This document shows positions 39,857 through 45,847 of a DNA stretch of 64,000 nucleotides, piece by piece; positions within the stretch are counted from its first letter, which is position 1; each line of letters opens with the position of its first letter. The notes below the pieces were generated by a model, which had not been told where the DNA came from, ran no database searches, and worked only from the letters and a program-made list of their open reading frames with translations. The position numbers and the translations under genes were made by a program. The stretch is from Candidatus Latescibacterota bacterium (GTDB lineage Bacteria; Latescibacterota; UBA2968; UBA8231): contig CBDFJF010000001.1 in the NCBI GenBank assembly GCA_965248265.1, positions 1,216,001-1,280,000 of the forward strand. The letters run 5' to 3'.

Positions 39857-39872
39857 AGCAACGATTGTGCCT
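39857..39872 (-). promoter_or_regulatory. Sigma-54 (-24/-12) promoter of the porin gene
   Basis: Minus strand AGGCACA-ATCG-TTGCT, about 80 bp before ATG 39776, which has an AGGGGAGGA RBS. Confidence 0.75.
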
Positions 39873-39944
39873 GAACGACACCGAACGCTGCCAGGCGAGA
39901 TTAGCCTGAGTTGCGTTGAAGACTCTATCTACCGGTGGGCAAGC

Positions 39945-39989
39945 GCGCAGAAGTCAGCGCTCGAAATTCAGCAGTGCTGGAGTTTCAGC
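39945..39989. promoter_or_regulatory. Enhancer (UAS) triplet 1
   Basis: GCGCAGAAGTCAGC, GCTCGAAATTCAGC, 3 nt, GCTGGAGTTTCAGC. Confidence 0.7.
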
Positions 39990-40016
39990 AGGAAATCGTC
40001 AGAGGTAGGGCCGGTA

Positions 40017-41153
40017 TCAAAATCTGATCTCGGGACCGGCGAACACGATGTGATCGACGTAGTCGTTCGCGGCGAACGACGAGTCGTTCATACGGAACAG
40101 ATAGCGGAGCTTGAGATGCGTTGCATCCCGCCATTTGTATTTGAGGAAAACGGATGACAGAAACAGGAGATCGTCGCGGGCGTTCTGCAGAATGGTGATT
40201 TCCTCTTCGTCTTCCCACATCTTGGAGATGAGCTCCTCGTAGGCCGAAATCGTTACCTTGTCGCTGAGTCGGCGGGAGTAGAGCACCGTCGCCTTGTGTT
40301 TCTTGAGATCGAACTCCGCCTCACTGTCCTGCGAGTCCTCGTGCCCCTCGACGCCGCCAATCTGGTCCAGACTCATCGATGACGACGAATCGATCTGGTA
40401 CATGTAGGTGGCGCTCAGGGTCTGGCGGGAGGAAATCAACCAATCGAATCCGGTTCGAAGGGTGTGACGGGACCCTCCTTCAACGGCGGAGATATTCTGG
40501 AACTCCTGCGGATTGGCGGACCCTTCATAGAGTTGCAGATCGTACGAGTAATAGGAAGAGAAACTGAAGCTCCACGTCTTGTGTGCTTCGACAAAAGCCC
40601 CGTTGACATCGTAATCCAGAGAGCTCGATTGCGGATACCGGGTGAGGATGTTCTGATACCCGACGCTCAACTGCCATTGGGGCGACAGCGGTCTCTTGTA
40701 GGTCAAGATGCCGGTATGCCTGGTAAAGTCGAAGGTGTCTTTGTCGGGCACGGTGAAATGGCGCAATTCACTCGTCAGGTGCAGGCCGTTCTCTCCGAGC
40801 CGGCGCACCAGTGACAGCCGCGTTCGGTTGAAGAACCAGTTCTCTTCTTCATGTTCGCTGTGGAGGTTCGCATGTCCAGTGTAGGCCGCATCCAGCCACC
40901 AGTCGGGACCCCAAGACTTGGCCAGCTGCAGATTCGCCGTAGGCTCGCTGATGAACGCCTCCTTGGTTCCTGCCCCTGTCGTCTTGCCGTTGCTCAGATC
41001 CAGGTTGGTGTTGAACTTGGCGAAAACGGCGGCGTTGCCGCTGAATTTCCAGCTGTCCTCGGACGGACTGTCCGCGGATGCATCTTGAGCATGATTGCCC
41101 CCGGCTGCCGGGCCATAGATGCAGAGAATGAACAGGAGGAGAAGAGGGATCAT
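40017..41153 (-). CDS. Outer-membrane beta-barrel protein
   Basis: Signal peptide, aromatic alternating strands, terminal EIRF. Confidence 0.7.
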   Translation of the reverse strand: MIPLLLLFILCIYGPAAGGNHAQDASADSPSEDSWKFSGNAAVFAKFNTNLDLSNGKTTGAGTKEAFISEPTANLQLAKSWGPDWWLDAAYTGHANLHSEHEEENWFFNRTRLSLVRRLGENGLHLTSELRHFTVPDKDTFDFTRHTGILTYKRPLSPQWQLSVGYQNILTRYPQSSSLDYDVNGAFVEAHKTWSFSFSSYYSYDLQLYEGSANPQEFQNISAVEGGSRHTLRTGFDWLISSRQTLSATYMYQIDSSSSMSLDQIGGVEGHEDSQDSEAEFDLKKHKATVLYSRRLSDKVTISAYEELISKMWEDEEEITILQNARDDLLFLSSVFLKYKWRDATHLKLRYLFRMNDSSFAANDYVDHIVFAGPEIRF

Positions 41154-41737
41154 CTAGACTCTGCCTCCCGACGCCTGAGTTCTGCCGCCTGCTTCTTGTA
41201 TTCAGTCACCATCTCAGTCAGTCCTCCCACCTCGATATCCAGCTCGCTGATCGACCGAGTCAGCAATTCCAACTGATTCGCTGCCACGTTACGTCCCTCG
41301 CGCATGCGATGCATACGTTGCTGCAACTGAAGGTCACCGCCCAGTTGCACCTTGGCCAGATCTTCCAACACCTCCAGCTGGATTTCCAGAGCGTCGTTCT
41401 TGTCAGACCATTCCTGCCGCGCCGTCGTCAGTTTTTCCCGCTCTTCGGACAGGTCGTCGATCCTGTCTCTGATGATGTCGGCCTTCTCCATGATATCTTC
41501 AGGTCCGTCCAGTCTCCGTAACTGGATCGCCCGGCTCAAATCGGTCCAGGTTTTCCAAATGTAGGCCGGGTCGACGAACGTCGCCGCCGACACCGAGTCC
41601 TGGGCGGTCGTATCCTTGAAAGCGGTCACCGTGTCCACCTCTGCTTGGACGGACTCGGTCTCACCTTGACCCAGCGCCCCGGAGGGAACCGCAGCGAATA
41701 AAGACAGACAGACGAGAAGGGCGAATCGTGCCTGCAT
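41150..41737 (-). CDS. Exported coiled-coil hypothetical protein
   Basis: Signal peptide, DGPEDIMEKADII motif, heptad-rich; overlaps the barrel gene start. Confidence 0.7.
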   Translation of the reverse strand: MQARFALLVCLSLFAAVPSGALGQGETESVQAEVDTVTAFKDTTAQDSVSAATFVDPAYIWKTWTDLSRAIQLRRLDGPEDIMEKADIIRDRIDDLSEEREKLTTARQEWSDKNDALEIQLEVLEDLAKVQLGGDLQLQQRMHRMREGRNVAANQLELLTRSISELDIEVGGLTEMVTEYKKQAAELRRREAESR

Positions 41738-41809
41738 GTTCAGTTTTTGGTAGAGTCCATCCTCCTGTTTGGTGCTGTCGGCGAAGACATCAGGCAATGC
41801 CGTGCGACA

Positions 41810-44228: not shown

Positions 44229-44231
44229 AAC

Positions 44232-45614
44232 ATGACGGCCATATTGATTGCCGACGACAACAGATCGACAACCCAGACCCTGAGTGCCCTCGTCGAACGC
44301 TGGGGTCACACCGCCCTGCCAGCCTTCGACGGCACCCAGGCACTGGCGTTGTTGGAAGCGGAGACCGTCGACATTCTGTTGACTGACTTGCGCATGCCGA
44401 ACCTCGACGGCATGGAATTGTTGACCATCGTCAAGGAGCGCTGGCCGGAGATCGTCGTCATCGTCGTCACCGCCTTCGGCAGCATTGAGACGGCAGTCAC
44501 GGCGATGCAGTCAGGGGCTTTTGATTTTCTCACCAAGCCCTATGACAGCGACGAGCTCAGAGTAAAACTCGCCAAAGCCGGGGCACAGCGTGAGATGATC
44601 GTGAAAATGGAGCGCCTCAACGCCCGCATCGCATCCTTCGAGGACGAGGCCCAGCTCCAACTGGGCATGGGCGAGATCATCGGCACCAGCCAGGCAATGC
44701 AGAGCGTCTTCGAGAACATCCGCAAGGTGGCTCCGACGGAATCCACGGTGTTGATCCAGGGTGAAAGCGGCACCGGCAAGGAACTGGTCGCCCGCGCCAT
44801 CCACAAACAGAGCCCGCGCCGGGACAAGGCCTTCGTTGCCGCGCATTGTCCGGCCTACGCCGAGGGGGTCCTCGAGAGCGAGCTGTTCGGGCATGAAAAA
44901 GGCGCCTTCACTGGAGCATATGCTCGCAAGATCGGACGGCTGAAACTGGCTGACGAAGGCACGCTGTTCCTGGATGAGGTCGGTGATATCTCGCCGGCGG
45001 TCCAGGTCAAGTTGCTGCGGGTACTTCAGGAGAGAGAGTTCGAACGCGTCGGGGGTACCAAGACCATCCACACGCAAAACCGCACGGTCGCGGCCACCAA
45101 TCGTGACCTGAGTGCCGCGATCGCCAGCGGCGAATTCCGTGAGGACCTGTTCTACCGGCTGAACGTGTTCTCGATCATGCTGCCACCTCTGAGAAACCGC
45201 AAGGAAGACATCCCCAGCTTGATCGAGACCTTCTGCCGTCACCAATCCGAGCGCCTCAACCGGCCGATATCCGGACTGTCACAACGGGCCGTCGAGACCA
45301 TGATGGCCTATGACTGGCCGGGCAACATCCGTGAACTCCAGAACGTGATCGAACGCGCCGCCATCGTAACCGAGAGTGGCGAAATCGACGTCGAAAACCT
45401 TCCCGTGGGCGTGGACGCAACGGAAAACCGCACACACGTCTCATTGCCAGAGGACGATGTCAACTTCGACGACGAGATGGAGCAATTCGAACGCCGGCTC
45501 ATCTTGCATGCCTACGAGAAGTCCGGCAAGGTCAAAGCCCGAACCGCCAAGATGCTCGGCATCGACCGCAATCGCCTGCGGTACAAACTGAAAAAGTATG
45601 GCATCGACGATTGA
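44232..45614 (+). CDS. Sigma-54-dependent response regulator (NtrC family)
   Basis: Receiver [33 protein letters not shown]; Fis HTH. Confidence 0.95.
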
Positions 45615-45640
45615 AGCCCTCAACCCTGCGTCCATGTCCT

Positions 45641-45686
45641 GCCTAGAATTCAGCAGGTGCTGATTTCTTAGCGCGCGATTTTCGCT
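45641..45686. promoter_or_regulatory. Enhancer (UAS) triplet 3
   Basis: GCCTAGAATTCAGC, 4 nt, GCTGATTTCTTAGC, GCGCGATTTTCGCT (last box weakest). Confidence 0.6.
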
Positions 45687-45831
45687 CCGTCCGCCTGCTC
45701 CAAAACCCACGCTGCACCCTGATCGCTCCGAAATCGATCGGATAATTTCTCTCTCATCCTGTTGTTAATAATCGCTTTATAGGATACTGGCCCGTCTGAA
45801 TCTCAGTGTTGGGGTCAGTCTTGTTGTCGCG

Positions 45832-45847
45832 CGGTATGAGCCTTGCT
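45832..45847 (+). promoter_or_regulatory. Sigma-54 promoter upstream of the PAP2 gene
   Basis: CGGTATG-AGCC-TTGCT with correct GG-N10-GC spacing. Confidence 0.6.

Follow-up and report, generated by a model that had tools for sequence, protein, structure and literature searches.

Which protein reads a short palindrome that recurs in three tight clusters around a two-component system, and which genes are controlled through it? The question is raised by a 64,000-nucleotide stretch of DNA from a Candidatus Latescibacterota bacterium, referred to here as the window, which corresponds to C1:1216001-1280000 of the genome labelled G000 (7.32 Mb, two contigs, 59.5% G+C). An earlier note on this DNA had described nine imperfect 14-bp palindromes in three clusters between positions 39857 and 45847, each cluster upstream of a sigma-54-type (-24/-12) promoter, and had proposed that a neighbouring kinase/regulator pair acts through them. 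We consider it probable that the clusters are upstream activating sequences (UASs), that is, enhancers, of the adjacent response regulator (NtrC type, gene at 44232-45614), the binding being suggested by the position of the sites and by their co-occurrence with the regulator.

Boxes, clusters and promoters

The nine 14-mers start at 39945, 39959, 39976, 41963, 41977, 41994, 45641, 45659 and 45673. When compared with GCTGA-N4-TCAGC, four of the nine have at most one mismatch and seven have at most two; the remaining boxes, counted by eye, have three mismatches of ten (41977) and six of ten (45673). Eight boxes are real matches, and 45673, with 4.6 bits, is a box by position only; promoter-proximal boxes are often degenerate in this way across sites. 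With the promoter placed to the right, the layout in all three clusters is a box, 3 or 4 nt, a second box and an abutting third box. The spacing from centre to centre is 17-18 nt and then 14-15 nt, so that the first and third boxes are 31-33 nt (about three helical turns) apart. Within a box, the GC-rich ends are separated by about 10 nt, or one helical turn, around an A/T-rich centre, a geometry that would suit a dimer with a Fis-type helix-turn-helix (HTH). Once the sites of relatives are added, the consensus becomes GCTGAA-WW-TTCAGC. The three clusters, with the E values given by the sequence model R1, are as follows.

39945..39989, minus strand: UAS1, with dyads at 39976 (distal), 39959 (middle) and 39945 (promoter-proximal); R1 E = 1.1e-5
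41963..42007, minus strand: UAS2, with dyads at 41994 (distal), 41977 (middle) and 41963 (proximal); R1 E = 1.1e-5
45641..45686, plus strand: UAS3, with good dyads at 45641 and 45659 and a degenerate proximal dyad at 45673; R1 E = 7.8e-6

All three clusters lie no more than 6 kb from the regulator gene, UAS2 ahead of the regulator operon and UAS3 starting 27 nt past the regulator stop codon. They are dyad-symmetric sites, grouped within about 200 nt upstream of a promoter and kept at orthologous loci. The promoters are listed below, with gaps measured from box edge to promoter.

39857-39872, minus strand: promoter P1, AGGCAC-N5-TTGCT, one mismatch to TGGCAC-N5-TTGCW; 72 nt from UAS1
41834-41849, minus strand: promoter P2, TGGCAC-N5-TTGCA, no mismatch; 113 nt from UAS2
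45832-45847, plus strand: candidate promoter P3, CGGTAT-N5-TTGCT, GG-N10-GC kept, three mismatches; 145 nt from UAS3

P3 is, by eye, the only GG-N10-GC site in its spacer; it is poor and may still function. Promoters with its kind of -24 element exist (nifH-type). Across the genome, 170 sites fall within one mismatch of the sigma-54 consensus as against 157 in shuffled sequence. There is no genome-wide enrichment, so promoter matches alone were not used as evidence, and promoters count by position only. A single rpoN gene is present in the genome (Sigma54_DBD 211 bits, over the cut-off), and transcription would be predicted to start about 12 nt past the GC of P1-P3.

The earlier description of this architecture is borne out. 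All nine boxes are present, the last in degenerate form, and the abutting pair nearest the promoter with a third box 3-4 nt further out recurs in every cluster. The claim that each cluster has a correctly spaced -24/-12 promoter holds for P1 and P2, whereas P3 retains the spacing and is otherwise weak.

Besides the clusters, a lone strong box, GCTGAATTTCCAGC (17.6 bits), was observed at window 41040-41053, inside the coding sequence of an outer-membrane barrel gene and about 100 nt past its start. Scores of 14 bits or more are reached at only 63 sites genome-wide.

Rarity of the arrangement

Single boxes are common: with up to two mismatches allowed, they occur at 4,636 sites in the genome and at 31 in the window. 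The arrangement of boxes was therefore scored with a weight matrix derived solely from ten boxes in four other genomes and applied to pairs at 17/18-nt spacing. The three clusters and one duplicated copy take the first four places among such pairs in the 7.32 Mb. Pairs reaching that score number 4 in the real genome, 0.3 on average in ten 200-nt block shuffles, and 0 in the reversed genome. A scan for triplets exceeds 30 bits at these four loci only, and the next-best genome match to model R1 has E = 0.06. The earlier note had asked how the motif compares with shuffled DNA, and the answer differs by level: the arrangement is rarer than chance, whereas single boxes are abundant. The shared-motif search that it had suggested for the three intergenic regions, run free of any prior motif, recovered all three clusters. 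The best shared 14-mer was the junction of the abutting pair in each of the three upstream regions, with a score of 34 of 42 that none of 30 shuffles reached.

The duplicated copy, at C2:1841421-1842307 (L027:7422-8308), is an 890-bp copy of window 41960-42823 with 87.5% identity. It holds the UAS2 boxes, a reading frame called orf263 and the first 18 codons of the kinase gene, and its distal box is expanded by three 12-nt tandem units. Beside it, at L027:8385-9836, is an IS91-family transposase gene (Y2_Tnp, Zn_Tnp_IS91), and the copy is probably a passenger of rolling-circle capture. Only two copies of orf263 are found, both in this genome; their differences by codon position (19/9/46) indicate that orf263 is a real gene with its start at about 42024, just past the boxes. 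No site in G000 is more than 6 kb from the regulator gene, apart from those in duplicated DNA of this region.

Polarity of the triplets

A sigma-54-like site (at most two mismatches, within 300 nt) pointing away from the boxes was found on the side of the abutting box at 14 of 20 sites, and on the distal side at none of the 20; the chance expectation, from the genome-wide rate, is about 0.03 per site. Eleven of the sites had been outside the model, and seven of these have a promoter, always on the side that the model predicts. The remaining four are the passenger copy on C2, a site at C3:967k of genome G021, a site on the metagenome contig L049, and one at a contig end that could not be judged.

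Two further sigma-54-like sites, each with one mismatch, were noticed in the window at 41810-41825 (+) and 39710-39725 (+). They point at UAS2 and UAS1, respectively, from the promoter side; the first is 9 nt from P2, face to face with it, and the second lies within the signal-peptide codons of the porin gene. No such sites facing the boxes were found in the other genomes. They could reflect chance, autoregulation of the orf263-kinase-regulator genes, or promoter interference.

Genes of the locus

The genes around the clusters, with the families matched in Pfam and NCBIfam scans, are the following.

38691..39776, minus strand: OprO/P-like porin gene, 361 aa with signal peptide (the start was picked from the signal peptide)
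40017..41153, minus strand: outer-membrane beta-barrel gene, 378 aa with signal peptide
41150..41737, minus strand: gene of a secreted coiled-coil protein, 195 aa with signal peptide
42024..42752, plus strand: orf263, encoding 242 aa when read from the ATG at 42024 and lying as an insertion upstream of the kinase gene
42768..44228, plus strand: sensor histidine kinase gene, Pfam HAMP, HisKA and HATPase_c
44232..45614, plus strand: NtrC-type response regulator gene, with receiver (REC), sigma-54 AAA+ and HTH_8 domains; the proposed binder of the boxes
45928..46632, plus strand: PAP2-family phosphatase gene, Pfam PAP2, with a weak LpxE-like match in NCBIfam
46782..47594, plus strand: VTC-domain gene, Pfam VTC E = 3e-42; possible operon partner of PAP2
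47642..48337, plus strand: DUF4956 gene, Pfam DUF4956; possible operon partner

The porin matches Pfam Porin_O_P (PF07396) with 46.5 bits against a cut-off of 20.9, the match being limited to profile positions 3-129 of 370. The coiled-coil protein has no Pfam match, and neither has the barrel protein, for which NCBIfam gave only a weak match to TIGR03016 and the Atlas only leads to SlipAM/BBP2-type barrels. No family was matched by orf263 in the Pfam and NCBIfam scans. The best NCBIfam matches of the kinase are AtoS and ZraS, both under the cut-off, and its periplasmic part is perhaps single-Cache-like, an Atlas lead alone. A terminator-like hairpin lies 3' of the DUF4956 gene at 48434-48449. 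VTC and DUF4956 perhaps belong to the regulon, an operon with PAP2 being assumed here from gene order only. A HAMP-adenylate/guanylate cyclase gene at window 37243-38694 (+) is convergent with the porin gene, and part of such a gene also stands beside PAP2 in G021 (L022 4-270).

Conservation among relatives

Orthologues of the regulator are found in genomes G008 (73% identity), G021 (72%) and G019 (64%), where the gene order is kinase, regulator, coiled-coil, barrel. The coiled-coil orthologue lies 3' of the regulator gene in these three genomes and in G085. Downstream of this four-gene block, G008 and G021 have a box triplet, a sigma-54-like promoter and a porin gene; G019 has there the triplet and promoter that belong to a gene for a 243-aa protein, which matches no family and whose signal peptide was read by eye. 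By eye, the spacer in the window has no evident likeness to those of the relatives outside the triplet and promoter. Triplets also stand upstream of promoters in divergent spacers, where no gene ends.

The spread of the motif across 76 genomes of the order was followed with a 46-position sequence model built from nine triplets (threshold E <= 0.01). The barrel gene occurs in six of the 76. The motif occurs in eight, namely all six genomes with the kinase/regulator/coiled-coil/barrel module and only two (G011 and G004) of the other 70. In G011, a triplet and a promoter that differs from P1 at its first base only precede a porin gene whose product is 69% identical to that of the window. In G004, triplet and promoter precede a PepSY gene and a PAP2 gene. 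PAP2 is also a target in G019, and the promoters preceding PAP2 in G004 and G019 are better than P3. A TonB-dependent receptor is the target in G019, G088 and G085, and an acidic PepSY lipoprotein, encoded far from the regulator locus, is the target in G008 and G021.

The barrel protein alone, used as a query, retrieved no related loci in the genome contigs, and a search with an alignment returned only the five genomes already known. A scan of metagenomes for the barrel gave two new contigs, L045 and L049, while four other loci repeat G019 or G088. On L045, which comes from a closer relative (barrel 87% identical), the coiled-coil gene directly follows another gene with no spacer. On the A/T-rich contig L049, a good triplet stands directly 3' of a barrel gene (460-900), where no sigma-54-like site with three or fewer mismatches was found; the next gene downstream has a sulfatase-like start, by our own reading made without a family search.

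Another recurring feature near the regulator locus is a cluster of a CotH-like gene, a gene of about 200 aa, VTC and DUF4956, joined by PAP2 in G021 (L021 15624-19900; L022 360-2520; L045 1-920). On L045, the gene of about 200 aa abuts the coiled-coil gene. These neighbourhoods suggest that the VTC cluster and the coiled-coil/barrel pair are functionally linked.

The adjacent regulator as the probable binder

In Pfam, the regulator matches Response_reg (3e-27), Sigma54_activat (2e-69), AAA_lid_14 and HTH_8 (2e-10). Its GAFTGA loop is intact, and Walker A and B motifs are present (LFLDEVG seen in the alignment); GAFTGA and HTH are kept in the aligned orthologues. Among solved structures, its nearest relatives are NtrC-family chains of the NtrC1/ZraR type, 4l4u and 1ny5 among them. 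NCBIfam equivalog cut-offs are not reached for AtoC (464 vs 714 bits), ZraR (416.7 vs 760) or NtrC (413.7 vs 558.6).

What singles out this regulator as the likely binder is the pattern of the recognition helix, together with the position of every site in G000. Its 12-residue recognition-helix segment is preserved by the G008 and G019 orthologues. In G002 and G015, whose homologues are 50% identical, the recognition helix is another one and the GAFTGA loop reads GAFTQA; no UAS was found at the syntenic loci of these genomes. The sole box there, one 14-mer within the coiled-coil coding sequence, was set aside as a coding coincidence because of that location. The four-gene order is nevertheless kept at these loci (L024 in G002, L025 in G015) despite the 50%-identical regulator, and the coiled-coil and barrel proteins may work together with the two-component system and not simply be its targets.

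The remaining proposals of the earlier note can be judged against these results. The intact GAFTGA loop of the regulator at 44232 is confirmed by the alignment, and the REC, sigma-54 AAA+ and HTH_8 domains by Pfam. The conservation at orthologous loci that it called for is found ahead of porin genes in G008, G021 and G011, ahead of PAP2 in G004, G019 and G021, and ahead of genes for other exported proteins elsewhere, a sigma-54-like promoter coming next in nearly every case. Its central proposal, co-activation of the porin, the coiled-coil/barrel operon and PAP2(-VTC-DUF4956) by the pair, is supported, with conserved sites ahead of porin and PAP2 genes; VTC and DUF4956 enter by operon assumption, and cluster 2 is found only here.

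Weighing of the alternatives

Several observations count against assigning the clusters to the regulator at 44232-45614 and the listed genes to its control. A match of P3's quality is expected by chance in about one in eight spacers of that length and is not significant alone. Cluster 2 and P2 exist only in this genome, and in the relatives the coiled-coil and barrel genes directly follow the regulator gene. In G021, VTC and DUF4956 are positioned upstream of the PAP2 triplet, and only about 25 nt, free of any promoter, separate that triplet from the start codon; the sites at G021 C3:967k and on L049 also have no promoter, and G085 has a sigma-54 promoter past the barrel gene with no clear site upstream. 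As for the binder, a search of G011 and G004, both of which have the motif, turned up no orthologue of the DNA-binding domain of the regulator; the best match is 38% identical, and these metagenome-assembled genomes (MAGs) are 84-85% complete. G088 keeps only codons 4-74 of the regulator at the locus, a regulator-like gene beside the TonB-receptor triplet of G085 has a different C-terminal HTH, and paralogous activators number over 40 in this genome (at least 41 regulator-family matches), so that another binder is possible.

These points on the binder are what would be expected if the clusters were real enhancers or operators bound by another protein, either one of the >40 paralogous sigma-54 activators or an unrelated dimeric protein, with proximity to the regulator being a legacy of gene order. 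Targets orthologous to those of the window are retained in G011 and G004, and in G088 the triplet and promoter outlast most of the regulator. However, the motif follows the module closely (six of six genomes with it, two of 70 without), and the exceptions are fragmentary MAGs (76-87% complete). The restriction of G000 sites to 6 kb around the regulator or to copied DNA, and the missing motif at the syntenic loci of homologues with a changed recognition helix, also speak for the neighbouring regulator. We therefore regard another binder as quite unlikely. A second alternative is that the clusters are not protein sites at all and represent chance, small RNA hairpins or terminators (TCAGC-N3-4-GCTGA followed by a T-rich run), or pieces of repeats or mobile elements. 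Single boxes are indeed frequent, cluster 2 is within the segment duplicated beside the IS91-type transposase gene, and 45650-45663 with TTTCTT, just past the regulator stop, was called as a terminator-like hairpin. Cluster 3 as a terminator was rejected, since terminator-like calls in the region number 8 against 7.2 in shuffles and the stem has only five pairs. The same triplets are also seen ahead of promoters where no gene ends, the duplication is limited to cluster 2, and the arrangement, far rarer than chance, is kept across genomes whose flanking spacers differ. Neither hairpins nor repeats can explain the polarity (14/20 vs 0/20). This non-binding alternative is already largely refuted by rarity, phyletic pattern and polarity, and we hold it to be very improbable.

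A third alternative concerns the direction of control and not the binder. Cluster 2 might serve the plus-strand orf263-kinase-regulator operon, as autoregulation, instead of or besides the coiled-coil/barrel genes; the promoter would then be the site at 41810-41825, with the enhancer downstream of it. That site, TGGCAT-N5-TTGCA on the plus strand, would arise by chance at only about 0.003 per 300 nt. The boxes end 17 nt before the ATG of orf263 and moved with orf263 in the duplication, and the PAP2 triplet of G021 is likewise just ahead of a start codon. On the other hand, the polarity of the triplet points to P2 on the minus strand, as it does to the promoter at all 14 sites that have one, and the 41810 site is absent from the duplicated copy. 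No regulatory sense can be made of the comparable facing site at 39710-39725, inside the porin coding sequence, and this suggests that both arose by chance. Autoregulation through cluster 2 is thus rather unlikely, and activation of the coiled-coil/barrel genes from P2 by the adjacent regulator is preferred.

Two of the loci mentioned above have features of their own. On L035 (G088:C218), at 3607-4155, regulator codons 4-74 abut the last 114 barrel codons. Either this junction arose in assembly, or a deletion has taken out the coiled-coil gene together with the greater part of the regulator and barrel genes; the neighbouring TonB-receptor triplet and its promoter are undamaged. The G085 gene, at L057 (G085:C658) 1675-3047, resembles the regulator over residues 4-390 with 56% identity and was missed by the search with the DNA-binding domain; it looks like a recombinant paralogue.

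Proposed mechanism and significance

A mechanism consistent with the above would run as follows. The kinase (42768-44228) would phosphorylate the regulator, whose dimers would bind the 14-bp dyads GCTGAA-WW-TTCAGC. Three dyads would hold three dimers, the content of one active AAA+ hexamer; with looping of the DNA, the hexamer would remodel sigma-54 RNA polymerase at a -24/-12 promoter 40-150 nt away. That the three boxes may template the hexamer is a suggestion based on the precedent of NorR, which has three essential enhancer sites. The predicted targets in the window are the OprO/P-like porin gene, the coiled-coil/barrel operon and PAP2, perhaps with VTC and DUF4956, and those in the relatives are porin, TonB-dependent receptor, PepSY-protein and PAP2 genes. 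The presence of one motif ahead of porin, TonB receptor, PepSY and PAP2 genes points to a small envelope regulon; the target products that were read all have signal peptides or are membrane or outer-membrane proteins.

A link of this regulon to phosphate or cations is a tentative possibility. A hint of phosphate comes from the porin, PAP2 and VTC genes; one of cations or small acids comes from the ZraS/AtoS-like kinase and the acidic PepSY proteins. A bolder version is that the triplet is a polar, preset hexamer template, in which two strong dyads 17-18 nt apart are joined by a weaker abutting third that always faces the promoter, and that the envelope regulon answers phosphate, polyphosphate or cations through a Cache-type kinase, beside or in place of the classical Pho system; this we consider doubtful. 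The textbook view is that sigma-54 enhancers work in either orientation; if the polar-template idea were true, enhancer orientation would matter.

For an uncultured candidate phylum, the locus offers a testable regulatory unit that comprises a kinase/regulator pair, a 14-bp dyad, a recognition helix and a short target list. One signal would tie together the coiled-coil/barrel pair, PepSY, PAP2, VTC and DUF4956, which narrows the search for their functions. The strict arrangement and polarity of the dyads provide a natural case for studying how DNA-bound dimers template an activator hexamer. To a specialist, the finding may appear tidy rather than surprising, being of standard sigma-54 enhancer design.

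Comparison with known systems

The design is that of a classical NtrC-type enhancer and is standard, whereas the motif and regulon were not met in the literature searched. Literature searches found no paper with this motif or regulon, figure logos, supplements and databases such as RegPrecise being outside their reach, and none on Latescibacteria and sigma-54. The same type of inference, in which an activator encoded nearby is paired with a conserved palindrome and a -24/-12 promoter, underlies the sigma-54 activator regulons obtained by comparative genomics for Desulfovibrio vulgaris (PMC4641369) and Clostridiales (PMC6615313), neither of which covers Latescibacterota in the text available. 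A term search of the main text of PMC4641369, where the logos are figures, found neither GCTGA nor TCAGC.

Among individual activators, AtoC is the best NCBIfam match of the regulator, as AtoS is that of the kinase. At the atoDAEB operon of E. coli, the verified AtoC enhancer is made of two 20-bp sites that abut, in which G/C-rich ends enclose an A/T core of the AAAWTT type (PMC3118216). Only this general plan of A/T core and G/C ends is shared with the boxes here; by eye, just about 10 of 14 positions of the AtoC core agree with the consensus, and the flanking bases are different. The two AtoC sites of 20 bp contrast with three of 14 bp in each cluster of the window, and the target genes are unrelated. 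A parallel in number is NorR at norVW of E. coli, for which all three enhancer sites are reported to be essential (PMC2831303). As here, one sigma-54 promoter is preceded by three sites. The sensor of NorR is a GAF domain in place of the receiver domain found here, and the promoter-proximal box here is often degenerate. The NorR motif also differs from the boxes here.

The domain order of the regulator (REC, AAA+ with GAFTGA, Fis-type HTH) is the same as in NtrC (NRI), which acts at glnAp2, and in NtrC1/NtrC4 of Aquifex. The NtrC site differs from the dyad described here, and NtrC-type activators are known to assemble their oligomer from DNA-bound dimers. In NtrC systems, the dyads likewise lie about 40-150 nt upstream of a GG-N10-GC promoter. 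The locus studied here departs from them in its targets, which are envelope genes instead of nitrogen-assimilation genes, and in its three tightly packed sites of fixed polarity.

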